Shown piece after piece: positions 2,702 to 43,506 of a stretch of 64,000 nucleotides of DNA. The DNA comes from Squalus acanthias. Its lineage: Eukaryota. The translations under genes were made by a program, and so were the position numbers. The stretch lies in NCBI GenBank assembly GCA_030390025.1, contig CM059432.1, forward strand, positions 52,516,001 to 52,580,000, in the 5' to 3' direction. The notes below the pieces were generated by a model. That model did no database searches, had not been told where the DNA came from, and worked only from the letters and a program-made list of their open reading frames with translations. Numbering within the stretch: position 1 is the first letter of the stretch; each line of letters starts with the position of its first letter.

Positions 2702-3461
2702 CGTTTTTGATAACATGTTAATTATGTGAGGAAGTTTATTTGCACAGGTTTACAGTGGGGTGGGTGAGAAACTATTATGGTGGCGGCATCTCAGAGAATT
2801 GTTTATGTTGCAGTGTGATTGGGCAGAAGTTCTTTTGGAAGGAGAAAGGTTTTGTGCAATAAGATTGATGAAGAATGAAGTAGAAAATAACCACTTAGAA
2901 AGGAGATGAGGAAAAAATAAATTGATGGACATTCAAATAATAAAGTTCAATGCTGTTGATGATAGATACTACAGTCATGAAATTAACTGGAGCCATGATA
3001 TTTACTGTAGACACAAACCTTTTTATTATATGGATAGAAAGATGTGTTATGCAGGTTCTCATACTTGTCAAAATGATTGTTGAAAGCTTTGAAACGTTAT
3101 TAGACGTACCAAAGCAAACAATATCCTGCCTAACACATGCCAGTACAAAACCATTGCTTACATAGAGTTTTATACTCTTTTACTTTTGAATATGTGATGC
3201 TATGTGTTAGAGGTCAGAGCATTGAGTAATTTTGCTTTGTATTCCTGTCTATTATAGGAACAGACACATCTTATTCATTGTTTTGAACCTTGCTTGTTGT
3301 CATGTTAAATGTTGAGCAAAAACATGTTCTTGCATCTCTTTCCTTGTTCTTTGTTTATCTTGTTTGTCTTCATTTCTTCATCCTTGAAAAAATGAAGTAT
3401 CTCTTGTTGCACAAACAGAGCTGTTCATGAATGCCTGATTAATTACTTTATTTAACTCTAG

Positions 3462-3896
3462 GAGGAGGAGTGCCTCATGGTGTGTTTCCTGAACAAAGTG
3501 GTAACACTGATGGACTAACAGAAAGCTGTGCACGCTGGGATGGCAAGCATGAGGCATCTCAGCCCGCACGCGACTCTTTACTAAGTTGTGATGCTGTGCT
3601 TAACAGACACTCGCTGCCCACTGGCTATGATAATTTGCCATGCACAGAACCAGATACACCAAAGGAGGTAAATGCAGAGCGGACAAGCAAGTCTAAACTC
3701 AGAAGTCCAAAGGTACAAGACATACACGAGGAGGGTCCAAAGATACAAGATAAGCATGAGAAGGGCCCAAAAGTACAAGATATGCACGAGGAGGGCCCAA
3801 AGATACAAGATAAACATGAGAAAGGTTCTAAGGTACAAGATAAACATGAGAAGGGCCCTAAAGTACAAGATAAGCACGAGAAGAAGGATAACCTAG
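3462..3896 (+). CDS. MYOM1: Myomesin-1 EH-segment cassette exon (435 nt, phase 1-1) with 6 decapeptide repeats
   Basis: Acceptor ...tttaactctag|GAGGAGGAGTG and donor CTAG|gtgaga. The translation GGGVPHGVFPEQSGNTDGLTES..KHEASQPARDSLL..RHSLPTGYDNLPCTE resembles the mammalian EH segment as recalled (GGGVSPDVCP..GGLTAS..VHEASPP..DALL..PSLPSSSQNLGQTE). It lies directly before the My7 exon. Confidence 0.88.
3707..3886 (+). repeat. Coding 30-bp tandem repeat x6 (P/S)K(V/I)QD(K/I/M)HE(E/K)(G/K)
   Basis: Units read directly: PKVQDIHEEG, PKIQDKHEKG, PKVQDMHEEG, PKIQDKHEKG, SKVQDKHEKG, PKVQDKHEKK. Confidence 0.97.
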
Positions 3897-9249: not shown

Positions 9250-9446
9250 CTTCTCCAGCCCCACCTTATGGAATTACAGTTCTTGAAAGTGTCCATGACT
9301 CTATGGTGTTAGGATGGAAACAACCCAAGTTCCATGGTGGTTCTGACATCACTGGCTACTTTGTGGATTATCTTGAAGTTATTGATGGTATCCCTGGAAA
9401 ATGGAAAGAAGCCCATATCAAAGCTGTCACTGAGCGGGCGTACAGA
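9250..9446 (+). CDS. MYOM1: Myomesin-1 exon, FnIII My7 N-half
   Basis: aaacag|CTTCTCCAGCC ... TACAGA|gtaggt; ASPAPPYGITVLESVHDSMVLGWKQPKFHGGSDITGYFVDYLEVIDGIPGKWKEAHIKAVTERAYR. Confidence 0.96.
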
Positions 9447-9844
9447 GTAGGTGAAACAAGGCTTACTTCCTGATCATGTTTTTAGAAGTTGTAAGGGAGA
9501 ACTTTCAGTTCAATATACTTCTCAAATGTCTATCTGAAAATAATGTAGGAATAAATATATCTATCACTTGTACTGAAATAACTTTGATTTTGTTCCCCAC
9601 CATTTCGGGTCTCCATTCCTCCAGAGTCACCCATTTGCATCAGTTATGCAGGGGGTGCTCCCTGCATCCTGGAGCAACACATATTCATTTCAAAGGCAAT
9701 ACATTGCCACTGGATACTGGTGCATAATCAGCAGGCCACGTGCATCTACAGGGTCGAGCAGCATGATGTTGGAAATTGTTTGGAATCTGGCTGTATAGAA
9801 TTAAACGGATTTAAGCTTTACCGTAACAATATGTCAATCAATGT

Positions 9845-10302
9845 GAAAGAGTAAATTAAAATGCTGGAAATACTCAGCGGGTCAGGCAGCATCTGTAGAA
9901 AGAGAAACAGAGTTAACGTTTCAGGTCGATGACCCTTCGTCAGAACTGGAAGATGTTAGACATGAACAGATTTTAAGCAAATACAGAGCCAGGGAAAGCG
10001 AGGCAGAAAAGAACAAAAGGGAAAGGTCTGTGATCAGGTGGAGGGATTACAAGGAGGTGATAATGGGACAAGTATAGTGAAAAAAGATGGGTCCAGAGGA
10101 GGTGTTAATGGTTACACAAAAATAGCAGAGCAGGGGAGAAACATGGAAAATCTGGAAAGCGAAGAGGGTTGCCATGGCCCGGGACCTGAAACATTAACTC
10201 TGTTTCTCTCTCTACAGATGCTGCCTGACCTGATGAATATTTCCAGCATTTTCTGCTTTTATTTATGATTTCCAGCATCCACAGTATTTTGCTTTTGTTT
10301 TA
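9845..10302. mobile_element. Non-autonomous Penelope-derived element with inverted arms and a hammerhead motif
   Basis: The arm AAAATGCTGGAAATACTCAGC...GTTAACGTTTCAGG and its reverse complement are flanked by ATGT(C/T)AATCAATGT direct repeats (9831-9844, 10303-10316). The arm is similar to the PLE terminus at 63575-63665. Confidence 0.75.
9911..9947 (-). ncRNA. Minimal type I hammerhead ribozyme motif
   Basis: Reverse complement: AGUU-CUGACGA-A-GGGUC-AUC-GACCU-GAAA-CG-UU-AACU (stem I, core, stem II, palindromic ACGU stem III). Confidence 0.75.
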
Positions 10303-10369
10303 ATGTTAATCAATGTATCTGGTGTACTGTCTTCCTCTAATTCTTGATCTTGCTACTTACTTACTACAG

Positions 10370-10496
10370 ATCCATGACCTAAAGGAAAACATGACATATC
10401 AGTTCCAAGTCCGTGCAGCCAACCTGGCGGGAGTTGGTATACCATCACTGCCAAGTGACGAGTTTAAGTGTGAAGAATGGACCATTGCTGTTCCAG
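10370..10496 (+). CDS. MYOM1: Myomesin-1 exon, FnIII My7 C-half (GC donor)
   Basis: ctacag|ATCCATGAC; IHDLKENMTYQFQVRAANLAGVGIPSLPSDEFKCEEWTIAVP. The frame requires the donor CCAG|gcaggt. Confidence 0.94.
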
Positions 10497-10571
10497 GCAG
10501 GTCTACTAACTCTCTGAAACAATATACTTATAATGGTGATGCAGAGTAATAAAGCAAGAATAAGAGACACT

Positions 10572-11326
10572 GGGGGAGAAATTTGGTATCGCCGCATTTT
10601 GGGCGCTAAATTTTGAAAGCTGGAAAAATTAGCGCCAGGCGCTAACGATTCTCAGCTTTCTCTAAATTGGGTGTTAGCGCTCCAGGAAGAAAGTGGAGCG
10701 CTAAATCAAGCAGTACCACTTCCCTTCTGGAGCGCTAAACCACGCAGGAGGGGACGGTAGAGGTGCAGTGCTGCACAATGTCCCGTGCAGCGCTGCCGGG
10801 ATCTGAGGCTCCTTCCCTCCCTTAAAGGGAACGGCCATCGCTGCAGGCTCTGCATTTCAACGATGTCCCTCGTTACCGACGGCAGCCGGGATCCGTGACG
10901 ATCAACCCCAAGCACTCTAACAGAGTGCAGGGCTGATCAATCGCAGCAGTTAAAATTTTTCAAACAACAACCTAAGGGATGGAAACAATTTTTTTCTGCA
11001 GACCAGCAGCCTTGCCTTTAATTACCACCCATCGAAGCTCCCAGCCTCCCTAACAATGCCTCCTGCAGCTGTCTGTGTTATTGCCTGGCGATGCTGCAGG
11101 GGGTGGAACCGAATTTCGGGTCTGGGGCGCTACCGGGGCGCTGCGCACGATCTCCAGACGCAAGAGATCGTGGTGCTAGGGCTTACCGCCACCACAAACC
11201 TCCAGGTGAATTTCGTGGGCGACGGTAATATCGCCGCCCCCGGGAGGTAAGTCGTTAGCACCCGTTATCGCCCCCCGCCCCCCGGGGTTGCTAACAGGAG
11301 GTGCAATGGAGGCGAATTTCTAGCCC
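10572..11326. mobile_element. PIF/Harbinger-like MITE, family A copy 1
   Basis: TIRs GGGGGAGAAATTT / GAATTTCTAGCCC, 3-bp TSD ACT, repeated GCGCTAA subterminal motifs. Related copies at 24321-25212 and 30241-30989. Confidence 0.75.
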
Positions 11327-12224
11327 ACTGTTTATTAGAAAAAATTGTGCTTGGGATCGAGGCACGAGAACAGGCTGGCAGCGGGACGGAAGATTTTTGC
11401 GGGGATCTGAGGAGCTCTCCTGCTGCTCCTGGTCCAACAAAATCTTAAAAAAAAACTAACTTTCTGGAGCGGCCTCCAGCGGTCACTTTAAGGATCGCCA
11501 GTTAGGGCTCTCAACGCCTGGAGAAATGGAACTGACATGCGCCGTGCATGCTCTACCCATTTCTATTCGTAAGTTGCAATCGGGGTTTTACAACAGGCGT
11601 AGGACCCTGATTTGTATAACTAAACGACCTCCATTTAAACACCTGCCTGAAAGTTGCTTCAGGTGGGCAAATGGGTGCACAAGTTCCCCACCAAACTATC
11701 AACTGCCGGTCGCCCGTTTTTCAGCGAGCGGCCAGCAGTAGAAAGTCTCCTCCTTGGTCTGTTGTCTATTGTACACAGAGAAAATAAAAACGAATTGCTG
11801 TGTAGTACTTTGTAGTATACTATATTGTTTGCGCAGGCTGGGCTTCTTAATTGTCAGCACTACTGCTAAGCATATGACAGACAGGTCACACTGCTAACTA
11901 TATGATTAATATACTGTGGCAACAATAGATAAAACAAAATATCATTAAGCACAACCAACCATGGGCAAGAATTTGTCTGGTTGCTATTTCTCGAAGAACA
12001 TGTTTACAATTACACTAGAAATACCCAGCAGAATTCAGTGAGGATGTTCTTACACAAAGGGATTTTTTATTCACATGTACTACACTTTAATAAATTACAG
12101 GATATAACATTTGGAGAGGATACCAATTGGTAACGCTTAAAACATTTACTATAAGTGTGCTATCATTACCATCATGTTCTGGCTACATTTTGTGTGAAGT
12201 AATGCATTTTACAATCTAATGCAG

Positions 12225-12409
12225 GGCCACCTCATGATGTTATGTACACTGAGGTCAGAAAGAACTCACTGGTACTCACCTGGAAAACTCCAGTGTATAC
12301 AGGCCGTAGTGAGGTGACTGGGTTCTATGCTGACATACGGGAGGCAGATGCAGATGAAGAAAAGTGGAGAAGTGTCAATGAAAAGGAAACATCAAAGAGA
12401 TACATAAAG
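12225..12409 (+). CDS. MYOM1: Myomesin-1 exon, FnIII My8 N-half
   Basis: atgcag|GGCCACCT ... ATAAAG|gtaaag; GPPHDVMYTEVRKNSLVLTWKTPVYTGRSEVTGFY...KRYIK. Confidence 0.96.
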
Positions 12410-13029
12410 GTAAAGGGCAGATTATAATTCTTATTCTCTTAAATTAATTTTATGATCACACTTGTTTGAACTGCTTTGTAGCGCGGCAACATTCCCAATT
12501 TACAAAATGAACTACATATCGATTACTAAAAGCAACCATCTAGTCCTATTCTTAAGCTGATATTTCAGTTATTTTAACAAACTTCATTCTTGTACAGCTG
12601 TTGGCCTAGAAAGGTGCTAAATGGTCTCCTAAGCCTCCAATATGGCAGGTAGGAAGTGCACGCTCATTACAAGCCAGAAGTGCGTCGCCTGCCATATTGG
12701 TAAAGCCAAAGAATCGGTGTGCAGTGCCCATGCCTGAAACAGGCATTAGGCTCTTTGCATATGCAACTAAGGGGCCTAACGCCTGTTTGAGGCCCCCACC
12801 ACAAAACTACTGGGCCTCTCCATTCAGACGCAGAGATCGTTTACTGGGGATGCAAGGATCTGAGGGGGAGGGGGAGGAAGAAGATGGGTATTTTGTGGCA
12901 TGTGGAGAGTTGGCAAGCAACTCGATGTTCTCTATCATATTCATTGGTGGAATGGTAATAAAAAGGGACCGACAAGGTTAACTTTTAAATCATCCTGAAG
13001 TCTCACCAATACCTTAACATTGCCAACAG

Positions 13030-13144
13030 GTACAAAATCTGAAAGAAGGTGTGAGCTATGTTTTCCGTGTGCGGGCTGTGAACAGGGCAGGTGTTGGAAA
13101 ACCATCAGATTTAACAGAGCCGGTCACCGCAGAAACAACCCCAG
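13030..13144 (+). CDS. MYOM1: Myomesin-1 exon, FnIII My8 C-half
   Basis: caacag|GTACAAAAT ... CCAG|gtttgt; VQNLKEGVSYVFRVRAVNRAGVGKPSDLTEPVTAETTP. Confidence 0.96.
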
Positions 13145-14377
13145 GTTTGTTTTGTCAGTTTGCAGAAATGACTCAAAATAGAAAAATTATCTTATTCACA
13201 AGGGGTGGATTGAAGTGAAATGAAGTAAGTGAGTTTTGATTATAACTGTCACTCTGTACATTCACTTGCTTCTGTAAAATAAAACAGCTCAATGATTCGT
13301 ACCTGGCCTTATCTCATTCAGGTGCAATCAGTCCACCTCCTAAAAGAAGTGCAGTTGAAGGCAAGTGTGAAAGACACAATATCCAGTTCAGATCGCAAAG
13401 GGGTACCATCATTTCCCCCACCCCCCCACCCGGGTTCCATTATTGTATGATTAGACATTGGGCAGTGTGCACACATTCCTCAACATATTAGACAGACTGA
13501 CCGGCACCACTAAACCCGAGAAAATATCTAAGGCAAATCCAAAAATTGTAGCACACTGTCTATGTTGAGTTAGCTGATCTCAGTTGCAGCAATAAGATAT
13601 TGCAATTAACCCGAATGCCCCTGAGAGAAGAAATTTGACCAGGGTTGTCCTCCTGATAGCTACCCAGCTGGAATTATTTTGTGTGCAAGCAAGGCTCGGT
13701 TCTGATGCACTGTGAGGTTAAATAGCTTACTGACACTAGCTAGCCTCCCATGTGAAGAATGTACACTTGGGTAAGGTGTCAGAGGGTGCCCGGGATCACT
13801 GAAATTGAGCCAAGCAGAGATCAAATGCCTTAACCCTGACTGATATTTCCCTGCTTGGCCCAAAGGCACCAAGGCCAGTTATAGCATCCCTCATACCACT
13901 CTAACTGTCTCATCTCTGTCAGCACAGGCTGAGAATCAAATCTTGGACTCTCTGGTCTCTATAACTCAGGTTGACCTTACCAACTCAGCCAATGAGCAAG
14001 TTTTCCAGTATTTTCTGCTTTTATTGCAGATTTCCAATTTTTTTCTATTCTCTTGTAATATAGCTGACCTGCAGGGCTATCAACTTTGGACAAATCCTAG
14101 TGCTCAGATTTTCAGTTGTGAGCCACATCCCTGAGGCATCATCTCACAGAAAAAAACATAAATGTGGTTTAAATTACCGTGATGTGCTCATCAGAGAGCT
14201 AAACAAGCCTTTCGTTAATTTCTTCAGACAAAAGAGCACATTTCAGAGAGAAGCAATGAAATTCTATAGTTTATTATTACATGAAACCTTCATTATCTGC
14301 CACATTGGAGGGAACCCTCTGCTAGATAATGGAAATTGGTGGATAATTGAGAACGCCTAATTTTTGGTCTTATAGAA

Positions 14378-14805
14378 GAAAAAGAAAGACTTGCATTTAT
14401 ATAGCGCCTTTCACAACCACCGGATGTCCCAAAGTGCTTTACAGCCAATTAAGTACTTTTTGATTGTAATGCAGGAAACGTGGCAGCCAATTTGCACACA
14501 ACAAGCACCCACAAACAGCAATGTGATAATGACCAGATAATCTGTTTTTAGTGATGTTGATTGAGGGATAAATATTGGCCAGGACACTGGGGATAACTCC
14601 CCTGCTCTTCTTTGAAATTGTGCCATGGAATCTTTTACATCCGCTTGAGAGCGCAGACAGGGCCTCGATTTAACGTCTCATCCGAAAGACGACACCTCTG
14701 ACAGTGCAGCACTCCCTCAGTACTGCACTGGAGTGTCAGCCTAGATTTTTGTGCTCAAATCCCTGGACTCAGAGGCGAGAGTGCTACCCACTGATCCACA
14801 GCTGA
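14378..14805 (-). mobile_element. SacSINE1/DeuSINE-like SINE
   Basis: L2-type tail (TTGCATTTATATAGCGCCTTTCAC), Deu-like core (CAGTACTGCACTGGAGTGTCAGCC) and tRNA-like head (GAGTGCTACCCACTG) on the reverse strand. Confidence 0.75.
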
Positions 14806-15633
14806 TGCATGGTATTACAATACGTCAGGGAAAAAGGACAACTATAAATATATATACTATTAATAAACTATTCTATAAATAAAGAAATATTAGCAAATTC
14901 TCTGAAATGAGGCAATGTTTTCTGTAAGGCTTCTTCCCATGAACATCCAGATAGATAATCAGGAATGTGGATAATTGTAATGTGGATAACAAATGTTCCA
15001 TTGTACGAATCTGCCTGACCAACATGCTTCAGATTTCTTTAACTCCTGCGCACAATATTGCAACACTTACTCTTATTTCACTGGAATCATTTGTGTAACA
15101 TGTAAAACCATTCTCACTTAAATCTAATGGTAAATCAAACAAGCATCCCTGTGTTCAAAGCATCAACACTCTGGGACACCAGCAGAAAATTGTAACTCAG
15201 GCTGGGTAGAGAGAGGCAGCAGATCTCGGGTGGCTGGAGATAGTTAACAATAACATTGGGACCTAGGCAGCAGATGAGAAGAAACAGCAGTAGCATAGAG
15301 ACTTGAGCTTCTGTTTTCAAAAAGCCAGCCAATCCCTGTATGTATCACCAAATTTCATTTCTCACAGTGCCGAGCAGCTCATATAACATATAGGGCCTGT
15401 CTGTCCAGCTCCGCTCAATAGGAAAAGCGGTCCTCCTGCATAGGTGTGGGATTGCAAGAAGTGAAATCATGTGAGACTCCCACCAAATGCACAAGAGTTG
15501 GTGTATCTGCTGAGCTGGCAGTATTTGAACAAAAAGTTCCAGTCTGCAAGCATTGACATTGTCAGATTGATCAGCAACAAACTTATAAGGAAAATTGGAA
15601 TTCGGCAAGCAATCTTTTATTGTCTTTTTTCAG

Positions 15634-15790
15634 GTACCAAAGAGATGGTGGTAAATGTGGATGACGATGGGGTTATTTCTCTGATCTTTGAAAGTGCTGT
15701 CATGGCTGAAGGTTCGAAGTTTATTTGGTCTAAGAATTATGAAGAACTGATTGACTCATCAAGAGTTACTATGGAGACCAAAGGCGGAAA
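15634..15790 (+). CDS. MYOM1: Myomesin-1 exon, Ig My9 N-part
   Basis: tttcag|GTACCAAAG ... GGAAA|gtaatt; GTKEMVVNVDDDGVISLIFESAVMAEGSKFIWSKNYEELIDSSRVTMETKGG. Confidence 0.96.
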
Positions 15791-16733
15791 GTAATTACAT
15801 TTTTCTGTTATTACAATATAATAGGGGCCCTTGCTGCCTCTCTTGTCTGATTCTTTCGGGGAGATCCTGACCCCCTTTTTTTACCAAGTTTAGTTGTAGT
15901 GCTGGATACAGCTGGCGAAAGGAAAAGCAGCTTATTTAGGCAGAGAAGAGGATGCTATCAACCAAAGTAGCCGTGTTATATACGTTGCTGGAAATAACCT
16001 CAAATATGTGGAATCAAAATGTTTTGAATAGGCTCCACTCTGCATCAGTGTATTCGCCAATGTATTTATTAACTATACCAGAATATTAGTAAACTAAAAG
16101 GATTATTGAGGCATTTTGTTAATTCATCAATACTTTGGTCGTGGTAATATTCAACTTGATTTATACACTGGTTATCCGATGCCCTCGCCGACAGGTGCAC
16201 TATTGTTAGTTTGATATCAAGTGCTGATTGCTTCAACAAATTTTGTCGCACCATGTTGCATCATATCAAAGTTTAATCATTATATTAACAACATTTCATG
16301 GAAAAGTCATATGGTAAACACGTAGCATATCAGTAAGAAACTAGAAAAGACGCAAACAAATTTTCTGGATTTACGCAAATAATGTGCTGCCGCAGACTTA
16401 CGCCCAAAAATTTAGGTGCAGCGCAGCCCGAAGTCACCTGGTATCGGCGTAACTGAGATTTCTTGAGTTTGATAGGGATTTCCTTTGCAATTTATTTTGA
16501 TTTTTCCTTGCTGAGCCAGGCACTATACTTAGCCAAAGTGCTGTCAGTCTCAGCGCACCTGAAAATTTTCATCCCCTCATCCCCTCCCATGTGTTCAGAA
16601 AGATGAAGCAGCTGGAATGCCCTTCCCATTGGGCATACCATGCATAATAACGGAAGAGAAAGAGGAGCAAGAGAGACCAGAGGCTCTGGGAGTAAGGCGC
16701 CATGGTAAAAGACAGCAGCCTATAACTTATTAC

Positions 16734-16872
16734 CAATGTTCCCCGTAATTTTTTTTTTGGTTGCGTGGCCCCTTTAAGGGGCTGCGCGGGCCAATCACAG
16801 TTTCGCGCATACGCGAACTTTAACATTGCAAAAGCCGGTCCTGGGCTGTGCAGCCGCTTATAGGGAACATTG
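16734..16872. mobile_element. 139-bp hAT-type MITE
   Basis: TIR CAATGTTCCC / GGGAACATTG with a perfect 8-bp TSD CTTATTAC (16726-16733, 16873-16880). Nested in a larger palindromic element at ~16360-17050. Confidence 0.85.
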
Positions 16873-17462
16873 CTTATTACCCTACTGATGGCACTGCATT
16901 TGCCCTTGTTTTATGCTGGTTTTTAGGATCCAGCGTAGGCAAATGAGCTCCGCAGCAAATTTTGGCTGAAGTTCTTGTCGCAAGATCGGCCCAGAAACTA
17001 GGGTAAATTTTGGCGTGATTTCTGCGTAAATTGAATTCAGGAAATTCAGGGTCATTATGTCAAAAGAAAAGCATGGAAAGATAGTACAATACATTGAGCT
17101 CCAGAACCCCATGCCTGTGCATTGATAGGCCACAAGTTAATCCCACCATTTCCTACGTAATGAGTGCTTGATCTTTGCTGTGCATTGTAGGAGGTGCAAG
17201 ACAGAGGTATGTCTTCTCAGGAAGGGAAGGAGAATCAGAAAGAGTCATTCCAGTAATGCACATCTCTTGGTAACGGGTTACTGAGCAATATTTTTAAACA
17301 TAGATAACTTTCTACAGTATGGTCCATGGCATTGGCAGATCTAGAGAGGGGAAAACAAAAAGGAAATCAACACAACAAATACAAAAGTATACACGGAATA
17401 TGCTGCTCAACAGCAAATATACAATGTGCTTAAATATCTTGAATTACTTCTTTCTCAAATAG

Positions 17463-17569
17463 GACACAGCTCATTTTCAATGACCCAGGGAAGGAAGATT
17501 TGGGTGTATACTCTTGTGTTGTCACTGAAACAGATGGAGTTTCTTCCAGCTATACCATAGATGAAGCAG
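17463..17569 (+). CDS. MYOM1: Myomesin-1 exon, Ig My9 C-part
   Basis: aaatag|GACACAG ... GCAG|gtatat; KTQLIFNDPGKEDLGVYSCVVTETDGVSSSYTIDEA. Confidence 0.95.
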
Positions 17570-17953
17570 GTATATTCAATTATGTTTACAAATCCAATTT
17601 ACAGAGAAAGCTACTAAAAGATTTTTAAAATGGTGATTGGAATCACATCTGAAGCTAATTTCTCCACTGGTATTTTGGGCTATTGCTCACAACCATAAGC
17701 ACTAAACCCTGTGGAAAATATTAAAAATTGAGGTAGGAGTAGCAACTGGCACTACATGCAGAAGTTTGGTTTCTCTTGTCAGAATTAAACAGGCAGGAAG
17801 GACACATGTTCGGAACAGGCAGGGTCCTTCTTTAAATATGCAGATTGGGCTCTGATGACATAATCGAGGCCCGACTGCAATTTTAACCAGTGGCCTGAGC
17901 AGCAAAGGCATTAGGGGGAATTTTAACCCCCAAAATCAGGTGGGTTGGGGTCG

Positions 17954-18395
17954 TTTCTTTTTATTCGTTCCTGGGATGTGGTTGTCGCTGGCAAGGCCAG
18001 CATTTATTGCCCATCCCTAATTGCCCTTGAGAAGGTGGTGGTGAGCCACCGCCTTGAACTGCTGCAGTCTGTGTGGTGAAGGTACTCCCACAGTGCTGTT
18101 AGGGAGGGAGTTCCAGGATTTTGACCCAGCGACGATGAAGGATCGGCGATATACTTCTAAGTCAGGATGGTGTGTGACTTGGGGGGGATCTTGGAGGTGG
18201 TGCTGTTCCAATGCGCCTGCTGCCCTTGTCCTTCTAGGTGGTAGAGGTCACGGGTTTGGGAGGTGCTGTTGAAGAAGCCTTGGCAAGTTGCTGCAGTGCA
18301 TCTTGTAGATGGTACACACTGCAGCCACGGTACGCCGGTGGTGGAGGGAGTGAATGTTTAAGGTGGTGGATGGGGTGTCAATCAAACGGGCTGCC
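17954..18395 (-). mobile_element. LINE 3' end (RTE-X-like), inserted into a GC-rich element
   Basis: ORF2 C-terminus ...YRRSFIVAGSKSWNSLPNSTVGVPSPH...HHHLLKGN* plus 3' UTR. The host element resumes at ~18393. Confidence 0.8.
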
Positions 18396-19239
18396 CACTT
18401 CCAATTTTAATGGGGGCGGGATGGAGGCTGGCAGCCAACCCCCTCACAGGAGGCGGGTTGGCACTATAAATATTATAATGAGGCTCCGTGCTTCATGGTG
18501 ATCCGCCATTTTAAATTTAACTCTGGGCAGGACAGTTTCCCAGGCCTCAGGGAACCTGCCAGCTAAAGGAAGCCGAAGACTGCTGGATCCAGGAGGTAAA
18601 TGCTCTTCCACTTACCTGCTGGATCCAGCGTTCCTGTCTCGCCAACCCCACGCAATCGGACATTGATCCTTCTGATCTCCCCCCTGAGGCCTCCGACACC
18701 CCCCACGAGGCCTCCAATCTCCGATCCCCCCTCCGGCCCCCCATGCCCCTTCGGCCTTCCGACCTCCCCCTCCGGCCCCCTATCCCACTCTAGCCTTCCG
18801 ACCTCCCCCTCCAGCCCCCGATTATCTTCCGACCTCCCCCTCTGGCCCCCAATTAGTGTCAGAACCTTTTGGGCAGCATTAGCTGCTGTAGTCATTTAAC
18901 AAATCTGTATCTGTGGAATATGCAATACTGGTAAAGGTCTGGTAAAGTAAATGTAGTAGCAGCTCCTTATAACATTGCAACCTGATAATTTTCTAATTTG
19001 GATAATTAATAGGATTAGCGTAGCTCCCTTTCAGATTTGTACTGAAAAGTAAAATGTACTATGCATCATTTATGTTGCCAAGGGGTATCATTCTTGATGC
19101 AGGTAACAATGTAATTGTGGATAAATTAATACTTTATTTGGCACAAAGTGTTGAGCTAATGTAATTTAAAACACAGATTTATATAATGTGCTTAAAAATA
19201 AATAACAATGATGGCAGGATGAGCACTAAACCATGAAGG

Positions 19240-19685
19240 AATTTAAGCACGTGGATGAGAAATTTAAAAATGAGACGTTGGGGGACCAGGAGCCAATGTA
19301 GGTCAGTGAGCACAGTTGTGATGGCTGAGCAAATTTGGTGAGGGATAAGATATGGGCAGCAGAGTTTATGGATTAGCTGAAGTTTACGGAGGGAGGAGGA
19401 TGGGAGGCCAATCAGGGGAGCATTGGAGTAGTCGAATCTGGAGGGGACAGAGACATGGCTGAGGGTTTTGGCAGCAGATGGGCTGAGGCAGGGGCAAAGA
19501 CAGGCAATGTTAGGGAGAGGTTATGGGGTCGGAAGCTCATATTGGGGTCAAATAGGAGACCGAGGTTGCAAACAGTCTGTTTGAACTGAGATGGTGGCTG
19601 GGGAGGGGGCTGGAATCGATGGCAAGGATACAGAGATTATGGCAGGGGTTGAAGATGATGGCTTTGGGTTTCCCAGTGTTTATAA
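19240..19685 (-). mobile_element. L2 LINE fragment
   Basis: Similar to 60720-61200 (GGAGCCAATGTAGGTCAG..., GATGGCTTTGG..TTCCCAGTGTTTA). Confidence 0.7.
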
Positions 19686-19856
19686 ATGCAAGTTGTTGTT
19701 GTTTTTGTGTCATTTGATCCATTCTATTAGGTTATAGCCTAAATTTATGGTTTGGGATTTAATTTAACAATTTGGGAGGAAATTTACAAAAATATTCATG
19801 CAGCTTTGTCAAAAATTGTTAAAGTTGTTTGAATCTGTTTTCTCTTCTCTTCGCAG

Positions 19857-19901
19857 AGTTGCTGCGTCTGCTCGAACTGAGTCATGAACATAAATTCCCA
19901 G
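19857..19901 (+). CDS. MYOM1: Myomesin-1 exon, My9-My10 helical linker
   Basis: tcgcag|AGTTG ... CCAG|gtaagt; ELLRLLELSHEHKFP. Confidence 0.95.
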
Positions 19902-20032
19902 GTAAGTATTCTAAGCCTTATCATCATCTGGAGTTATGCTTGTTACTATCCTTTGATTTAATGCTGTAATCCTATTTAAAGTAACGTAAAATCTGACAGA
20001 GTGACACATGATGATATTACCTGTGTTGACAG

Positions 20033-20169
20033 TTGTACCTCTGAAGTCAGAACTAGCAGTTGAGCTACTGGACAAGGGACAAGTGCGCTTCTGGTTGGAG
20101 GCTGAACGTCTCTCTCCAAATGGACAATGTAAACTTGTATTTAATGACAAGGAGATTAAAAATGATGAG
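20033..20169 (+). CDS. MYOM1: Myomesin-1 exon, Ig My10 N-part
   Basis: tgacag|TTGTACCT ... GATGAG|gtgagt; VVPLKSELAVELLDKGQVRFWLEAERLSPNGQCKLVFNDKEIKNDE. Confidence 0.96.
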
Positions 20170-20413
20170 GTGAGTTTCTTACTAATTTCTGAAGCTCAAA
20201 TTTTAAAGGAATGTGTTAACGATTCCACCAGAAATAGCAAACACAGGAAATTGTCATCAACACACTTACAATGCTGAGACACATAGAGCAGAGAAATTAT
20301 TACCTGAAGGTTTCAAATGTGACCCAGGAATGAAGTAAAAACATCTCCTAGTTAGTTTAACTATTTTGAATTTACAAATCATAATAACAGTATTTACTCC
20401 AGAAATATCTTTT

Positions 20414-23400
20414 TAAATGCGTGGCTGGAGAGATGGTGCAGGAGGGAGGGCTTTAGATTCCTGGGACATTGGGACCGGTTCTGGGGGAGGTGGGACCTGT
20501 ACAGGCCAGACGGGTTGCACATCAACAGTGCTGGGACCAATATCCTCCCTAGTGCTGTTGGGGAGGACTTAAACTAACTTTGCAGGGGGATGGGCACCAG
20601 GATGTAGCATTAGAAAGGATTGGGAGAGACAGATAGCACTAAAGTAAGAAATAGTACGGTATTAAGTGGGGACAGACTAAGAGAGAATACAAGAAGGTTG
20701 AAGATAGGTTTACAGTGCATGTGTGTAAACGCACGAAGCGTGGTAAATAAGGTTGGTGAGCTGCAGGCGCAAATAGCCACATGGGAATATGATGTCGTGG
20801 CGATAACGGAGACCTGGCTCAAAAAAGGGCAGGATTGGGTACTAAATATTCCTGGATGTAAGGTGTTCAGGAAAGATAGGGAAGGAAAGAAAGTAGGTGG
20901 GATAGCAGTTTTGATTAAGGAGAATATTGCAGTGCTGGAGACAGAGGATGTCCTGGAGGGGTCAAGGACAGAATCTATTTGGTTAGAGTTAAGAAACAAT
21001 AGAGGTGCCATTACACTACTAGGTGTATTCTATAGGCCACCAAGTAGTTGGAAGGATTTAGAGGAGCAGATCTGCAGGGAAATTACAGAGAGGTACAAGA
21101 ACTATAGAGTAGTGATAATGGGGGCTTCAACTATCCTAATATAGACTGGGATAGTAATAGTGTAAAGGGCAGAGAGGGGGAAGAATTTCTGAAGTGTGTT
21201 CAGGAGAACTTTCTTGATCAGTACATTTCTGGCCCAACGAGGAAGGAGGCATTGCTGGTTCTGGAGAATGAGGTGGGTCAACTGGAGCAAGTGTCAGTAG
21301 GGGAACATTTAGGGAACAGTGATCTTAGTATCATAAGGTTTAGATTAGCTATGAAAAAGGACAGGAAGCAATCTGGAGTAAAAATACTTAATTGCAGGAA
21401 GGCCAATTTCAGTGGGTTGAGAATGGATCTGGCCTGGGTAAATTGGAATCAAGGATTGGCAGGCAAAACTATAATCAGACAATGATCTGCCTTTAAAGAG
21501 GAGATGGTTCGGGTAAAGTCGAGGTGCATTCCCACGAGAGGGAAAGATAGGGCAACCAAAGTCAGAGCTCCCTGGATGATGAAAGAGATAGAGAGTATGA
21601 TGAAGCAGAAAAAGGGGGCATATGACAAATGTAAGGTTGAGAATACAAGTGAGAACCAGGTTGAATATAGAAAGTTCAGAGGGGAAGCGAAAATGGAAAT
21701 AAGAGGGGCAAAGAGAGAATATGAAAATAGAGTGGCAGCTAACATAAAAGGGAATCCAAAAGTGTTCTATAGGCATATAAATAGTAAACGGTAGTAAGAA
21801 GAGGTTCTAAATTAGTACTTTGTATCTGTCTTCAACAAGGAAGAGAATGCTGCCAAAGTCATAGTAAAAGAGGAGATAGTTGAAATACTGGATGGGATAA
21901 AAATTGATAAAGAGGAGGTACTAGAAAGGTTGGCTGAACTTAAAGTAGATAAGTCACCAGGACCGGATGGGATGCATCCAAGGACGCTGAGGGAAGTAAA
22001 GGTGGAAATTGCAGAGGTACTGGCCATACTCTTCCAATCCTCCTTAGATACGGGGGTGGTGTCAGAGGACTGGAGAATTGCAAATATTACACCCTTATTC
22101 AAAAAAGGGTGTAAGGATAAACCCAGCAACTACAGGCCAGTCAGTTTAACCTCGGTAGTGGGGAAGTTTTTAGAAACGATAATCCGGGACAAAATTAAGT
22201 CACTTGGACAAGTGTGGATTAATTAAGGAAAGCCAGCATGGATTTGTTAAAGGCAAAATGTGTTTAATTAACTTGATTGAGTTTTTTGATGAGGTAACAG
22301 AGAGGGTTGATGAAGGCAATGCGGTTGACGGGTGTACATGGACTTCCAAAAGGTGTTTAATAAAGTGCCACATAATAGGCTTGCCAGCAAAGTTGAAGCT
22401 CATGGAATAAAAGGGACAGTGGCAGCATAGATATGAAATTGGCTAAGTGACAGGAAACAGAGAGTAGTGGTAAACGGTTGTTTTTTGGACTGGAGGAAGG
22501 TACACAGTAGTGTTCCCCAGGGGTTGATACTAGGACCACTGCTTTTCTTGATTTATATTAATGACTTGGACTTGGGTGTACAGGGCATAATTTCAAAATT
22601 TGTTGAAAACACAAAACTTGGAAGTATAGTGAACAGTGAGGAGGATAGTGATCGACTTCAAGAGGACATAGGCAGGCTGGTGGAATGGGCGGACAAGTTG
22701 TAGATGAAATTTAACGCAGAAAAGTGCGAAGTGATACATTTTGGTAGGAAGAACAAGGAGAGGCAATATAAACTAAACGGTACAATTCTAAAGGGGGTGC
22801 ATGAACAGAGAGACCTGGGGGTATATGTGCACAAATCGTTGAAGGTGGCATGGCAGGTTGAGAAAGTGGTTAAAAAAGCATACGGGATCCTGGGCTTTAT
22901 AAATAGAGGTATAGAGTACAAAAGCAAGGAAGTTATGATGAACCTTTATAAAACACTGGTTCGGCCTCAACTGGAGTATTGTGTCCAATTCTGGGCACCG
23001 CACTTTAGGAAGGATGTGAAGGCCTTAGAGAGGATGCAGAAAAGATTTACAAGAATGGTTCCGGGGCTGAGAGACTTCAGTTACGTGGATAGACTGGAGA
23101 AGCTGGGGTTGTTCTCCTTAGAGCAGAGAAGGTTGAGAGGAGATTTGATAGAGATGTTCAAAATCATGAGGGGTCTAGACAGAGTAGATGGAGAGAAACT
23201 GTTCCCATTGGCGGAAGGGTCGAGAACCAGAGGACACAGATTTAAGGTGATTGGCAAAAGGCGACATGAGGAAAAACTTTTTATACAGCGAGTGGTTAGG
23301 ATCTGGAATGCACTGCCTGAAAGGGTGGTGGAGACAGATTCAATTGTGGCTTTCAAAAGGGAATTGTATAAGTATCTGAAGGAAAAAAAATTGCTGGGCT

Positions 23401-23512
23401 ACAGGGAAAGGGCGGCGGAGTGGAACTGGCTGAAGTGCTCTTGCAGAGAGCCGGCACGAGCTCAATAGGCCAAATGGCCTACTTCTGTGCTGTAACTATT
23501 CTATGATTCTAT
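20414..23512 (+). mobile_element. 5'-truncated CR1 LINE (ORF1 esterase tail plus disrupted APE-RT ORF2)
   Basis: ORF1 end NAWLERWCRREGFRFLGHWDRFWGRWDLYRPDGLH; APE motifs NARS, VAITETWL; RT motifs KSPGPDG, NYRPVSLTS, PQGLILGPLLF; TTCTATGATTCTAT tail. Several stops and frameshifts. Confidence 0.93.
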
Positions 23513-24320
23513 TAGATACTGCAGCCGAGGAAGTTCCTAGCATTCATCGTTTACCTGGAAGGGCAGAACTATGGACTTCAGCATGGTGATTGTGATTGGC
23601 TGACAGGAAAAGCACTTGCAGTGGACAAGCCCAAAATGTCAGCTATTCCCTCCCCACCACTTCATTCAGTAGCCAAGTAAATGCTGGCCAAATTTCCTTG
23701 TAGCAATAGTTGCAAGTTGCGGAGTGACAGGCACCCCATCTATGCAAACCATGAGACTATCTGTTACAAGTCTACTTATTTTTGGAAAATTACATTGGAG
23801 TATTGATGTTTGAAGTATTATAGAAGAAGGAAGAGAGCTAGTAAATGATTCCAATGTTAATTAATACTGTGCCATTTTGAAAGAATTTTAATGTTTTTAA
23901 TTGTGAGTTATCATGTAAGAAACTCAGGCTAGGATTTGGTGGAATCCTCGTGCATTTTGGTTGGGACTGAAGGTTCACCAGCCTCAAACCCAGGCCTATT
24001 TTCTGAGGTCAGTCTATTTTGAATATGTTAGGCAGGCGTAGAATGCCTTTGGCAAATATTTCACATCTGCCGCAGTGTAACTTGGTAAGCAACCTTAGAA
24101 CTGCCTATTTAAAAAAAAACACCTTAACATGTGCAATTGATCACTCTGCGATGAACTGCACAGGCCCAGGTGGACCTCCAATTTTTTAATTCCCTTCTGC
24201 ACAAGCATTCCTAGCACTCGCTGTTGCTAAAGTGAAAATGAAGGGAAATATGTTAGATGATATATTTCAGTCAGTTGATTGTCATTATAATACACTGGCC
24301 TATGTTTGGGTGGAGATATT

Positions 24321-25212
24321 GGGGGGAAAATTCAGTTGGTTGCGCCTCCCGTTAGCGCCTTAAGAGGGCGCTAATGGGGCGCAAAGCATCTAGCGCCCAG
24401 GCGCGGCGAAGTTTGCGCCGCTCGCGAAATTAACTAGACATTTTGCGGCGGCGCTAAACACTACCGCCACGATCTCCTGCGCCGGCAGATCATGACATCA
24501 CTCGAGTGCTCAACGCCCCGGTATCGCCCCGGAGCGGATATTGAGTGGCGCCCCCTGCCTTACCGCCTGACGCTAGCAACGACAGGTTGAGGGGAGCGTT
24601 CTGCAGTCATGAAGGGAAAGGGGGAGCGCTATTTAAAGGTGACCGCTTCCTGCCTTTTATTGTTGGTGCCATTTTTGAGCTACGCATTCTGAGAGAGAGA
24701 GGGAGAGACTTCTGGAGAGATTCAACGTTGTGTGAAGGAGTTTTGGGTATGAGCAGCACTTTGCAGGGTCATTTTGATTTGCCATTCCTTGTATCGATTT
24801 AGCAGAGACTGTGGGGGCTGCACTCTGAGCTCTTTGCCTGGTACTCTCCATTGTTCTTTCTAGCACATTTGATGTGCAGGTCTCTCCAGGCTGAGATTCA
24901 AGGCTGCAATGAGCAGGATGTGGATGGAAAGCAAGATTAACCATCCCCTTTAAGAACTGGCCCGTGCCATTGTGTGTGTGTTCCATTGCTGACTGACATC
25001 ACATGAGCTTCGCCAGCGCTCTGAGGTAGCGCCTCACTCCTCGGCCTTTGCGCCTTAAGACAGGTGTGAAGCACCTGATTTAGCGCTGCAATCACCTCCA
25101 GGGGCGATAAAAGTCAAGTTTGCAGTCGGTGGCGATAATTAGCGCCAGGTGCTAATCTTTGTGCCCGGCCGATAATTGCGCCCCAAATGGGGCGATACTG
25201 AATTTCTCCCCC
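24321..25212. mobile_element. PIF/Harbinger-like MITE, family A copy 2 (inverted relative to copies 1 and 3)
   Basis: TIRs GGGGGGAAAATTCAG / CTGAATTTCTCCCCC with TTAGCGCC motifs. Confidence 0.7.
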
Positions 25213-25642
25213 ATCATACCTACCCTGTCACTTCCAGCACAAAATCTTGGAAGTGGTGGAAGACAGCAGGGAACCAGTACAGTGTCTTCTGGAGAATTTC
25301 CTGCCGCATCCTGCTGAGAAATCTCAAACAGAAAACTCTGCCCTCAAAGTCTGGAGATCAAAGCAAGCCCGAAAACTAGTGCCACAAAATGGTGAGATAC
25401 AGATTGATGCCAGTAGTTCCCACATATTGAGCTTTCAATCTCAACTGAAGAACTGAGAGAAGGTCCGAGCAGAGGGAGGAAGGAAAGCCGAACGGCAAAT
25501 CACCTCCCTGTCGGTGGTTGCAGAGCAGCACTGGCAGAAATCTGAGCGTCCTTCCTTTAGTTGCAAAATGGTTCACAGAATGAGGAGACCTTTAAATAAA
25601 GCTGCTTTTTATTTTGTTTCAAACTTCCTTTCTGCTTTTCAG

Positions 25643-25787
25643 AAATATAAAATAACGGTGGATCATAAAACTGGTTTAGTGGAAATGATAATGGAGAAAT
25701 TGGAGGATATAGATGAAGGCACTTTCACTGTACAGCTCCAGGATGGTAAAGCAAGTAACCAGTCTAGTCTGGTTCTGATTGGAGATG
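25643..25787 (+). CDS. MYOM1: Myomesin-1 exon, Ig My10 C-part
   Basis: tttcag|AAATATAAA ... GATG|gtgagt; KYKITVDHKTGLVEMIMEKLEDIDEGTFTVQLQDGKASNQSSLVLIGD. Confidence 0.96.
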
Positions 25788-27234
25788 GTGAGTCTTTTTA
25801 CTGCTTTTGTCTTCCTGAAAACAAATGCCAATCACAAACAGCAGAAATAGGACCCCATGGATGCACTGAGCATTTCTACACTAAAGAAGATTCGAATTTT
25901 AAATGCTACAATTATTAATGGCACTTATAGATCACCTCCAAGTGTTTTTCTAAAAATGTTGTACTTACAGTCTTTGTTTACAGTGCCCAATTTATGACTT
26001 GTTGGCCGAATGCAGATGACTCCAGCATTTCATCCTACCTGCCGTGCCTTTACACTTTGTGGCCTGAAGAGTAGTTCTTGGTTCTCAGTAAGCACCACCT
26101 GGTACAGTTTGCCCTGCCTCTTTTCCCCTGAGCACCGTGTCCTTAGGGTTGTTGTGTGGCATGATAATGAGCTCACAGAATCAGATGGGAAAATGAAGCA
26201 GAACAATGGCGCAAATGACTACCATTTGCACAGCACAGCCCCCCACCCCCCCCACCCCAGCACCTCCCAGCCAAGATCCCAGTGTGCCTCCTCTTCCCCA
26301 TGTGCAAGGGGCCAATCCAGTTTTTTTTCAAATAACCTTTTCTTGGGGTGTCCAGTCCTTTGACCCTTCAGTGGGACCCACTTGTGCCCCTGTGGAGGCT
26401 GATGCACCTCATCTTATTTAGCATTCCAGCCTCAAGTACTACGCCAGCTCCCAACTGTGCCTGGGAAATGCAGACTCCCGGTGTAGCAGTTCCTGCCCCC
26501 GGCTCCACTCACAGACCTCTCCGCCCCAACACCACATGTAGTGGGTGAGCAGAGGTTCTGTCCCTTACAAGGCTGACAGAGAAATGCTCGAATTGGCAGC
26601 AGCCCAGCAGATCCAGGTTCTGCTGATTTTTCGATGGATTTTAGTGGACAGTAAATAAACAGCAGCTCTGACTAGACGTAGATGTTACGCCCTTCGAATT
26701 GTTTTTAAGTTGAGCAATGTTTCAAATGCTTTCATGGGGAAATAAAGGTCCAAACATTAGCAAGTTCTTCACAGTTTTTTTCTCTCTTTTTCATTGTTTA
26801 CACATCAATTCATTTGCAAATGGGAGGAAATTAATGCAATACTGCAATTTTAAGGGAATTTACAAATAGCTTTGCACCTTTTTTGTAATGGTTTACACCA
26901 TGAATAAAATACAGGTCATTTTGACTATGTATATATATATATGTAGATTTAGAGAGAGAGAGAATTCGAGATTATGCAACTATCTATTCCAAAAATTGTC
27001 AAACATCTGAGTAACTCTGTAAAAGACTTCAGTGACACTAATATTAAAGGGAGGAAATTTATTTATAATAACACAACTGCTGCAAAATTTGAAAGTGTAT
27101 TTCAAGCATAATTATTCGACGTCACATTGATTAGTTTTAACAGTGCAAAATGTGGTTTCTTTAATGTGTATAAGAGAGTTTAGTACAATGTTTACAATAT
27201 TCTGGTTTCAAAGTGTTTTTCCTTTTCTTTTCAG

Positions 27235-27294
27235 TGTTTAAGAGTCTGCAGAAAGAGGCAGAATTCCAGAGAGGAGAGTGGATCAGGAAACAAG
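27235..27294 (+). CDS. MYOM1: Myomesin-1 exon, My10-My11 helical linker
   Basis: tttcag|TGTTTAAG ... CAAG|gtaatg; VFKSLQKEAEFQRGEWIRKQ. Confidence 0.96.
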
Positions 27295-28316
27295 GTAATG
27301 GCAAAATCTGATTCATATATTGAGCAGCAGTTAACATATTCTCCTGTATTAATCAATAAATGAAGCCACGATGGGGGCAATGTTAACCCTGCATGCTTGG
27401 TGCAAACCAGGCTGATGGTTAAAATTGCCCAGGAGATTTATCTGCCTATGATCTGCTCTCTTCCCGCAGTCTTCAATTTTAACCTGCTCTTCTGAGCAGG
27501 CGGGAAGGACACCTGCCAGAATCTGGCGGGGTCTTTCTTTAAATATGCAGTTCGGGCTCCGATGATATCATTGGGGCCCGACTGCGATTTTAACCAGAGA
27601 CCTGTAGCCATTGTGGCTTTCACACCATGCCAACCCAGCAGTGAAGAGGAGTCTGGGCTAAAAGAGGCCCGAAAAGGAAACGAGTTTAACTTTCCATGTG
27701 AGGTCCGGAGGAGCTGGCTTGCTTTTCTGGTCCCCACAAAGGAAGGTTAGGGCACCCGTGCCCCGGGATTCCCCCTCCCCGATCGCAAGGCCCTCCCGAA
27801 CCTTCTCCCTGCGACTTAGCAGAGTGCCGAGGTCCGTTCCTTCAGTATCTGGAGGCGTCCTCCTGCCGCCCGACATACTTCTCCCACCCACCGACCAGAT
27901 GCAGCTTCCCACAGGAACCTGACTCCGCCTACACAGATGAAGTCCAGGAGATAAAATCTCCCAGGCCTCACGCTGCCGAGGTGAGAATGATTTGCCGCTC
28001 GCCTCGACCGCCGCCCACACGACTACCGGCCCGAGTTAAAATCGGGCTATTATCCCTACTCCTCAAATCTGGTACGATACGGCTGTTTGTGAAAACCACT
28101 TCATATAACATCATTGCTTCTTATGCAAAACATTATCTACTGGCAAAAAACAAAAATATTAAGAAAATCACTAATGGGCTGTCTTCGAAGGTTAAGCCAA
28201 GATTTAAACTTCGATAGGTGAATTCCATATTTACTAAGTCGGTGTGATAAAGATGTGAATTGATTTTTTTTATTTTGTGCATTTTATTTGTAATGATAAA
28301 TCTTCTATGCGAACAG

Positions 28317-28384
28317 GTCCTCATTTTGTTGAGTACCTTGGATGGGAAGTTACTGATGACTGCAGTGTACTTTTGAAATGCAAG
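28317..28384 (+). CDS. MYOM1: Myomesin-1 exon, Ig My11
   Basis: gaacag|GTCCTCAT ... TGCAAG|gtaaaa; GPHFVEYLGWEVTDDCSVLLKCK. Confidence 0.96.
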
Positions 28385-30169
28385 GTAAAAACAATAATTC
28401 TTACATGTGGTTTAGTTTTCATAGAACATTATTCTAAAAAAACAGTTAATGCTTAAATGTTTAGAGGGCAGCTGGGTATCTTGGCCTGAATAGAAAGATG
28501 GTAGTAGTTTAAAAAAAATAATAATTTGGTTGTAAATTTCCACGTAAAAGTGTTCATGACAACACTAAGAACACTGAGGCAGGGAATTTTCCTCTTTAGT
28601 GGGGACAGAAAATTGCATGGGCATCGGTTTTGCCTGATCCCTCTCCCATTTCTGCGCCAGATGCATTTTCTGCCAGATGTGTCCATCCAAATATGGGTGG
28701 GCACATTTAAATGAGGCAACAGTAAGATCATGCGTCACATTTTGTTATTATGCCCTTAGCAATGCTGGAAGCTAGTAATCCTTGTATATAACAGGTATTT
28801 AGTATTGCTATTGGAGGCACAACAACAAATATGGTGTAAATAACCAAAAGATGATAATAAATGTAATGTGGGGCAACGGATTGGCAGTTCTGCAGTATTT
28901 CCCCCATCTACTATGTGTGTTACCACCTCAAAGAATTGTATGAGATTTATCAAGCACAATCGTCCCTTTTGAAATCCGTGCTGGCTACTTTTAACTATTT
29001 TCTCTATCGAGATTCATGGTAATTTCATCCTTAATTAAAGACTCTAAAAATTTCCCTACCACGGATGTTTAGGCTTCCTTTAAAAAAAATAGGTGTTACG
29101 ATGGCCACCCTCCAGTCCTCTGGCCCATATCCACACTCAATAGAACCCTAAAATAGAATTTCTGGGGTCTCAGCAATTTCCTCCCTCATCTCCCTCAAAA
29201 TCGTAGGACTTTGGCCCTAATCTAAAATTTTCCTTTTATCCATGATAATATTGCTCATCTGCACCTTTAAGCTGCTGCATGCCCCGTCCCCTCCAACGGC
29301 AATCATTTCCCACACCAACCCCACCCCACCCCGCCGCGTCCCCATGGCGAGCCCCAAACATAGGCTAAAACACTAGGCGCGCACCCAAAAATTTCAAAGA
29401 GGCGGAATCCTAGAAATAAGGTCAGTGATGGGGTAAACATCCAGGTGCAAAGCCCACAACTCCAACTTAATGCCAGTGATCCTGCCAAGAGGAAAATCTA
29501 TGCTTCAAAGCATGGGATAACACCGTTTTGAAGTGTAGAACACTATGGAGTTTCAGCAGCTTCAGTAGTTCTACCTCAAGTAGCAGGATGCCTGTGAGTC
29601 TGCGTTTGTAGTTAGTCAGTGGATCAAATTTACCATGCTTCAGGGAAGTGCCCATTAGTCCCCACAAGTACCTAGAGCACAGGAAATTTGAATCTGCTGA
29701 TTTAACTGATAATAAGGCTTCATGTTTGCAGTTTTGCATGGTCCATCACCTGATTACTCTGAGTGGAGTGTCCAAGGTTCGGGATTTTGATGCGCAATGT
29801 ACTCCAGATCCAGGACGTCCAACCTTTAGCTTCAGTAAACAATGGGGTGCTCTACATTTTGGTTATGATTGTGAGGACAACTCCAATCCCCCTGTTGGAG
29901 CCATCTATATGAAGTATGAACTCCTGGGCAGAAACAGAACCTGTGCACAAGCATCCTACAGCTGTTTGAAAGCATGCTCATTGCTTTGCAACTAGGTCAC
30001 CTGATTTAGTGGCTGTTTACTTGTGAGGTCTATTAACAGCAAGGTTTTGTTGTTATATCCATGTGAAGTTTTATTAATAGCCTGCAATTCTAAAAAAAAA
30101 TTGATAACACAGGAGGGAAAATCAGTTCCTATTAACTATCCACTGACCATGATAAAAAGTGTCCAACAG

Positions 30170-30206
30170 AGTTAACGTTTCAGGTCGATGACCTTTCATC
30201 AGAACT
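30170..30206 (-). ncRNA. Minimal type I hammerhead ribozyme motif
   Basis: Reverse complement: AGUU-CUGAUGA-A-AGGUC-AUC-GACCU-GAAA-CG-UU-AACU. Confidence 0.75.
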
Positions 30207-30240
30207 GGAAAAAGTTTTGTACAATCATACCTTTTGTATG

Positions 30241-43500: not shown

Positions 43501-43506
43501 GTAAAT

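Follow-up and report, generated by a model that had tools for sequence, protein, structure and literature searches.

A shark orthologue of the myomesin-1 EH exon carrying six charged decapeptides, and a putatively longer and softer M-band spring

The myomesin-1 gene (MYOM1) of Squalus acanthias carries, on the forward strand of a 64,000-nucleotide stretch (hereafter the window), an exon at 3462..3896 which is best read as orthologous to the mammalian EH exon, with six charged decapeptides that make it about 50 residues longer, and which when spliced in would form a longer and softer entropic spring; a probability of roughly 0.8 is assigned to this reading. In mammals, the EH segment is encoded by MYOM1 exon 17a (human) or exon 18 (mouse). 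As far as the available portions of the papers go, EH is a 96-aa disordered insert between domains My6 and My7, ‘found in all species’ and PEVK-like in function (PMC8900313), and there are accounts of its tissue pattern and disease link (PMC7023976, PMC3032906) as well as of MYOM1 exon numbering and splicing regulators (PMC4413555, PMC8482499). The pattern that characterises EH is inclusion in embryonic heart and in slow or extraocular muscle, with skipping in fast muscle. No paper on the chondrichthyan EH exon, its repeats or a 6-aa form was found in the literature search, outside which the primary EH papers lay. The chondrichthyan exon is already present in public gene models (RefSeq), and this prior annotation limits the surprise.

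The full cassette exon has 435 nt, a multiple of three, and adds 145 aa between My6 and My7. It is bounded by the acceptor ...TTTAACTCTAG/G at 3461/3462 (AG 3460-3461) and the donor CTAG/GTGAGA at 3896/3897, contains no in-frame stop codon, and joins the next exon at 9250 in frame, so that its description as a symmetric phase-1 exon in the first-pass annotation of this DNA is borne out (phase 1-1). Five elasmobranch myomesin-1 models out of 53 candidates share 69-78% identity with it, and Pfam returned no family for it at E up to 1. Its conserved N-part of 82 codons (3462..3706, plus strand) is followed by six 30-bp units encoding decapeptides of the PKVQDKHEKG type (3707..3886, plus strand). 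An internal donor, ATG/GTGTGT (GT 3480-3481), which the first-pass annotation had missed, defines a mini-exon of 18 nt (3462..3479, plus strand) that would add six residues, GGGVPH, through an in-frame junction. A further consensus-like GT, GAG/GTAAAT, lies upstream of the repeat (3668..3673, plus strand); its use would give 206 nt and shift the frame, and a segment ending there was seen in no elasmobranch model fetched. With a rough matrix built from the window itself, the internal donor scored 5.6 and the full donor 4.9, both at the low end, and the out-of-frame GT at 3668 outscored both. The intron stretch before the acceptor (3162..3461, plus strand) is rich in pyrimidines and TCTT, with nine TCTT in these 300 nt, where the other 20 acceptors of MYOM1 are preceded by 0-5; it is a candidate splicing-regulator site, perhaps of the RBM20/PTB type.

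Downstream, the exon at 9250..9446 (plus strand) encodes the first part of the Fn3 domain My7, as indicated by Pfam fn3, tblastn and the gene model, and a PDB search with it matched only Fn3 domains of titin, myomesin-1 and MyBP-C. The remainder of MYOM1 comprises 20 exons from My7 to My13 and the stop codon (9250..44207, plus strand), which splice into a model of 751 aa. This model is identical at 93.4% to Pristiophorus, 92.7% to Heptranchias, about 90% to galeomorph sharks, 86-88% to batoids and 82.5% to Callorhinchus. In a tree of 24 rows it falls within the elasmobranchs (99/97) and groups with two squalomorphs at 83/84, a placement that is not firm. The My6 exon was not found within the 64-kb window, and the My6 side is taken from the models of relatives; LPIN2 likewise had no match in the window. 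The frame between the My7 and My8 exons needs a GC donor, CAG/GCAGGT at 10496/10497, that is, a GC-AG intron. Inside the last coding exon, GTAAGT at 44139-44144 is a perfect donor at the tail branch point. Several chondrichthyan models (P0069, P0064, P0015, P0032, P0007) have a long alternative tail of about 117 aa after My13, which matches the long tails of two birds (E 3e-9 and 2e-8) and of two turtles; an exon for such a tail was not found in the window. By this likeness, the chondrichthyan tails would correspond to the long C-terminal (H) myomesin variant, which a passage of PMC8900313 says is known only from birds. Short non-coding tandem arrays, C-rich and G-rich, occur at 18720-18850, 36716-36935, 37142-37200, 58073-58121 and 59344-59441 and are probably parts of mobile elements.

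The likeness of the N-part to the mammalian EH segment, which had been noticed from the letters alone, holds under a profile made from 41 placental EH segments with flanks removed. The HMM scored 17.2 bits for the whole exon, a score reached by none of 2000 shuffled exons, 19.9 bits for the 82-residue N-part and -0.4 for the repeat part. Over 846 frames of the window, the frame of the exon was the best, at 20.6 bits against 5.7 for the next. Likewise, BLASTP matched the exon to 37 of the 41 placental segments (10 of 41 at E<1e-3), the best matches having 35-41% identity over 74-82 aa. The exon shares with mammalian EH the gene, the place between My6 and My7, the symmetric cassette, an annotated skipped form, the N-part motif GGG-x-x-x-x-V-x-PE...GLT...HE-x-SQ and predicted disorder; it differs in its length (145 vs 96 aa), its six-unit decapeptide polyampholyte C-part, its lower Pro content and its internal 6-aa donor. 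On every feature tested the exon belongs to the EH exon family, and on these comparisons its N-part is orthologous to mammalian EH. The N-terminal motif is also found in chimaera, sturgeon, gar, bichir, teleosts, coelacanth, frogs, reptiles (including a lizard) and birds, and gene models with and without the exon exist on both sides of the split between cartilaginous and bony fishes. Hence the EH exon predates that split, and the early dating of EH splicing in the first-pass annotation is upheld at the level of gene models. A search of the N-part against 1.84 billion representatives gave 10 matches (three chondrichthyan, one bird-type and six weak multi-stretch) and no recognisable jawless-fish match, an absence which neither shows nor excludes an origin of EH before jawed vertebrates. 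Seven elasmobranchs keep 65-72 of the 82 N-part residues of the window (79-88%). Such conservation is high for a pure spacer, and the N-part may also bind something.

The C-part is an open, regular array. Tandem Repeats Finder (TRF) gave a period of 30, 5.9 copies, 80% matches, no indels and a score of 207, in agreement with the six uninterrupted units first noted. The lag-10 identity of the encoded repeat is 37/50 and was reached by none of 20000 shuffles. Its composition (25% Lys/Arg, 23% Asp/Glu, 10% His and 8% Pro) is that of a near-neutral polyampholyte. The units differ from each other at 3-9 of 30 nt, and the pairwise differences fall at codon positions 1, 2 and 3 in the proportion 21/8/44. 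Changes from the majority unit comprise 10 synonymous and 7 replacement changes, and out of 20000 simulations under neutrality, a synonymous share of 10/17 was attained in 1 at kappa 2, 12 at kappa 4 and 35 at kappa 8; pN/pS among the units is 0.19. The six units are under protein-level constraint. Codons for the same residue differ between units in 39 of 115 cases (34%), and therefore the units are not fresh copies. The 60-bp higher-order pattern that had been described in units 1-4 is visible but weak. Units 1 and 3 differ by 4 nt and units 2 and 4 by 3 nt, compared with 5-8 nt between neighbours among units 1-4, and TRF matches are 83% at a period of 60 bp versus 80% at 30 bp; yet units 2 and 5 also differ at 4 nt only, and the pattern rests on three replacement positions. 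A recent duplication as its source was rejected, as the synonymous sites give no clear support: same-residue codons differ in 2/8 (units 1 and 3) and 2/9 (units 2 and 4) of cases against 2/6 in neighbours, and in 1/7 for three other pairs.

The repeat is not confined to Squalus. Of the named elasmobranch species, 12 have a full-exon model in RefSeq and every one of them carries it, for example Hemiscyllium (XP_060679595.1), Scyliorhinus canicula (XP_038665115.1), Rhincodon (XP_048452094.1) and Leucoraja (XP_055490178.1), which share the same exon and repeat family; no full-exon model from a squalomorph was seen among the models listed. Full segments in elasmobranchs measure 138-164 aa (median 143), and 10 of the 12 species keep 138-145 aa. 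The count across species, which the first-pass annotation had proposed to make, does return 6, 7 and 8 units, but mostly 6: six units in 10 species (three skates among them having a unit 2 of just 5 aa), seven in Scyliorhinus canicula and eight in Rhincodon. Counts are equal in Hemiscyllium and Chiloscyllium, among five non-skate batoids, and among three skates. The first, the last and the Ser-initial penultimate units recur among elasmobranchs, and the middle units turn over, with no one-to-one match between sharks and batoids. The array of the window is the most homogeneous, its within-array unit identity being 78% against 35-53% in the other elasmobranchs. As the repeat occurs in both sharks and rays, it is older than their split. 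That split dates back over 250 million years.

A separate repeat, also missed earlier, is found in the chimaera Callorhinchus milii, whose EH segment (XP_007899131) has 144 aa. It too has six tandem decapeptides and three annotated splice states, but the unit is different and sits in a different place: the segment holds one copy of the elasmobranch unit and, in its N-part, six copies of another decapeptide (lag-10 identity 24/50, reached by none of 20000 shuffles). In the alignment these form a chimaera-only insert of 50 residues at window 3509..3538 (plus strand), where the window has a single copy of the Callorhinchus-type decapeptide, DGLTESCARW. The extra 50 residues of Callorhinchus are acidic and more hydrophobic than the elasmobranch repeat. 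A common origin of the two kinds of unit was considered and rejected, as they occupy different positions and each lineage has a single copy of the unit of the other. Removal of five units from either lineage (145-50 and 144-50) leaves 94-95 aa, and lengths near 95 aa occur elsewhere, in coelacanth (97), bichir (97) and placentals (92-103, 41 segments). The EH segment of the chondrichthyan ancestor would thus have had about 95 aa and would have been lengthened twice independently, the chimaera side being one holocephalan species for which chance is a possible source of the 144/145 match. Lengthening of the spring in this lineage, as first proposed, is consistent with about 50 residues added to a segment of about 95 aa, but the presence of the repeat in 12 of 12 elasmobranch species places the event well outside the lineage of Squalus.

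A segment of 145 aa is long against mammals and ordinary among fishes, and its portrayal as unusual fails: Antechinus has 136 aa, platypus 135, and 40 hand-picked long forms of teleosts have 133-260 aa (median 152.5), mostly without repeats, in a summary that omits 12 rows of 46-219 aa, namely shorter or partial forms, a duplicate and a mis-anchored row (P0022, P0023, P0025, P0028, P0038, P0051, P0052, P0065, P0066, P0068, P0071 and P0077). Sturgeon, gar and bichir range over 97-111 aa, frogs have 89 aa, squamates 105-106 aa and birds 109-110 aa (11 picked full forms). In a periodicity test of 168 EH segments, 20 beat all of 300 shuffles, of which 16 were chondrichthyan and four were teleost rows. 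Other tandem periods seen are 8 aa in a moray eel (P0224) and 12 aa in Trichomycterus (P0042, a 260-aa segment) and in the tuna-like P0040 and P0065. Duplications apparent in platypus and Antechinus failed the ungapped test. Cartilaginous fish have a distinctive urea/TMAO physiology. As a cause of the lengthening it was rejected, for the coelacanth segment has only 97 aa and teleost segments are long.

Computational gene models of 23 chondrichthyan species, among those listed, include skipping in at least 15 species, the 6-aa mini form in at least 11 and the full form in at least 13. All three states appear in Chiloscyllium punctatum, Mobula hypostoma and Callorhinchus. The full form is absent in 10 of the 23 species among the models listed, and Heptranchias and Pristiophorus, the nearest annotated relatives, have only skipping and mini forms there (4 + 4). 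A skate myomesin-1 found in Logan only (P0127, 1551 aa on a contig of 5255 nt) runs from My6 through EH with the repeat to My7, and is taken to be a transcript because 5255 nt cannot hold the introns; a skate read-through ORF (P0266) leaves the exon at the NL/GE point, as in the window. Of 261 proteins fetched, 61 show the 6-aa form, a putative Gly-rich hinge; they come from cartilaginous fish, teleosts, a turtle and a monitor lizard, and long forms were favoured by the search used for mammals and birds. Judged from proteins, the Gly required by the internal donor occurs in platypus and wombat alone among 48 mammalian segments; the 45 placental segments examined, one of them out of register, all lack it. 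Chiloscyllium plagiosum has a 13-aa insert form (P0240, P0241, P0243), reflecting either a further donor or an assembly artefact. Intermediate lengths, such as 84 vs 96 aa in Pongo (P0225, P0226), 89 vs 109 aa in birds (P0160, P0162, P0163, P0167) and others in several teleosts, suggest more alternative donors near the 3' end of the exon. According to a portion of bioRxiv 10.1101/429704, cold acclimation alters the splicing of a set of genes in three fish, myom1b among them.

The 145-aa segment is predicted to be intrinsically disordered. AlphaFold2, run on the sequence of a relative (Hemiscyllium) with an 8-row alignment, gave pLDDT <50 for residues 97-241 of the My6-EH-My7 stretch (block means 21-30) and no secondary structure there, and folded the Fn3 domains with pLDDT 66-93. 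FoldIndex values are -0.22 for the window exon, -0.43 for the repeat and +0.15 for My7, so that the disorder prediction suggested by the first-pass annotation comes out the same way by both methods. With an assumed 0.38 nm per residue and persistence length of 0.4 nm, the full form would have a contour of about 55 nm versus 36 nm for a 96-aa EH, and a low-force stiffness of 0.28 vs 0.42 pN/nm, about one third softer. The earlier label ‘PEVK-like’ proves loose. P+E+V+K make up 53% of the repeat, 37% of the whole exon and 36-41% of two mammalian EH segments, and Pro is 8% in the repeat compared with 14-16% in primate and rodent EH. Titin PEVK has about 70% P+E+V+K, and its PPAK units are longer than 10 aa. 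The titin region gave no sequence match (Pfam, E up to 1), and the shark unit has 10 aa; still, the EH segment would work like titin PEVK, as a disordered, charge-rich, repeat-built and alternatively spliced sarcomeric spring, without being a PEVK repeat.

When spliced in, the segment would likely act as an entropic spring of greater length and lower stiffness between My6 and My7, softening the link between myosin filaments. Tandem duplication would have lengthened an ancestral segment of about 95 aa, at its C-part in the elasmobranch line and at its N-part in the chimaera, and slow turnover of the middle units may then have led to 6-8 units among species. The elasticity would most likely be tuned by the splice state in each muscle type, as in mammals.

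The alternative that deserves the most weight, though it is on balance rather unlikely, is tolerated drift: EH would serve as a free spacer, short units in it would expand by slippage, any length of about 90-160 aa would hardly matter, and the 144/145 match would be chance. The wide spread of lengths (frogs 89, placentals 92-103, birds 109-110 and teleosts 133-260 aa), the separate tandem repeats of moray eel (8 aa) and Trichomycterus (12 aa), the 5 aa of unit 2 lost in skates and the middle units, for which sharks and batoids lack one-to-one counterparts, all suit such a spacer. Drift does not easily account for the synonymous excess within the window array, the retention of 138-145 aa in 10 of 12 elasmobranch species, or the tight lengths within birds, squamates and placentals. 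It is a good deal less probable that the repeat serves mainly as a charge- or pH-sensitive binding or screening element beside My7 (e.g. for creatine kinase docking at My7-My8) rather than as spring length. Lys/Arg (25%), Asp/Glu (23%) and His (10%) do recur at fixed spacing under constraint, and MM-CK is described, in a portion of PMC8900313, as binding My7-My8 in a pH-dependent and charge-based manner. Yet in batoids the units of an array have drifted apart to 35-53% identity, the 50 residues gained by the chimaera are of an acidic and more hydrophobic kind, and most teleost extensions have no unit in common with the repeat; from this unlike chemistry it follows that the common feature is added length and not the elasmobranch unit sequence.

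A tuner of variable copy number, which the first-pass annotation had raised as a possibility, now appears improbable, whether its count were to differ from individual to individual or to change quickly between close species. Counts of 6, 7 and 8 occur among sharks, and the units of the window, 78% alike against 35-53% elsewhere, would fit recent homogenisation or slow evolution. However, six units are kept in 10 of 12 species, with equal counts in related genera, two gene predictions of the whale shark have the same eight units, and differences at 39 of 115 same-residue codons lower the chance of unequal crossover; copy number among individuals as a control of elasticity finds no support. Least credible is the view that Squalus uses only the 18-nt mini-exon or skipping and that the long exon is a relic. 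The full donor is weak, and the models listed for Heptranchias and Pristiophorus are of those two kinds only, but all 435 nt are open, the donor is intact at a position conserved in skate, 65-72 of 82 N-part residues are kept, and the repeat has its synonymous excess. The longer, softer spring is thus the reading that we retain.

EH-myomesin serves as a marker of dilated cardiomyopathy; as the textbook spring of the M-band, it is described in the available part of PMC8900313 as a 96-aa on/off insert. The present comparison dates EH to at least the jawed-vertebrate ancestor and makes natural length variants from 89 to 260 aa available. Sister lineages with 144-145 aa built from chemically unlike repeats offer a test of whether length alone sets the behaviour of the spring. 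One could go further, on a conjecture that is doubtful as a whole: most jawed vertebrates may have a three-position M-band switch (0, 6 and about 95-160 aa) whose middle position was lost in placentals, selection may independently have brought the long form of chimaeras, of elasmobranchs and of teleosts to about 145 aa, and a fibre's splice state might help to decide between the simple lattice of red and the superlattice of white shark muscle. According to the accessible text of PMC4280514, the superlattice occurs in the white and the simple lattice in the red muscle of sharks and rays, and myomesin isoforms, it is speculated there, could decide between them; the EH splice state would bear directly on this standing proposal.
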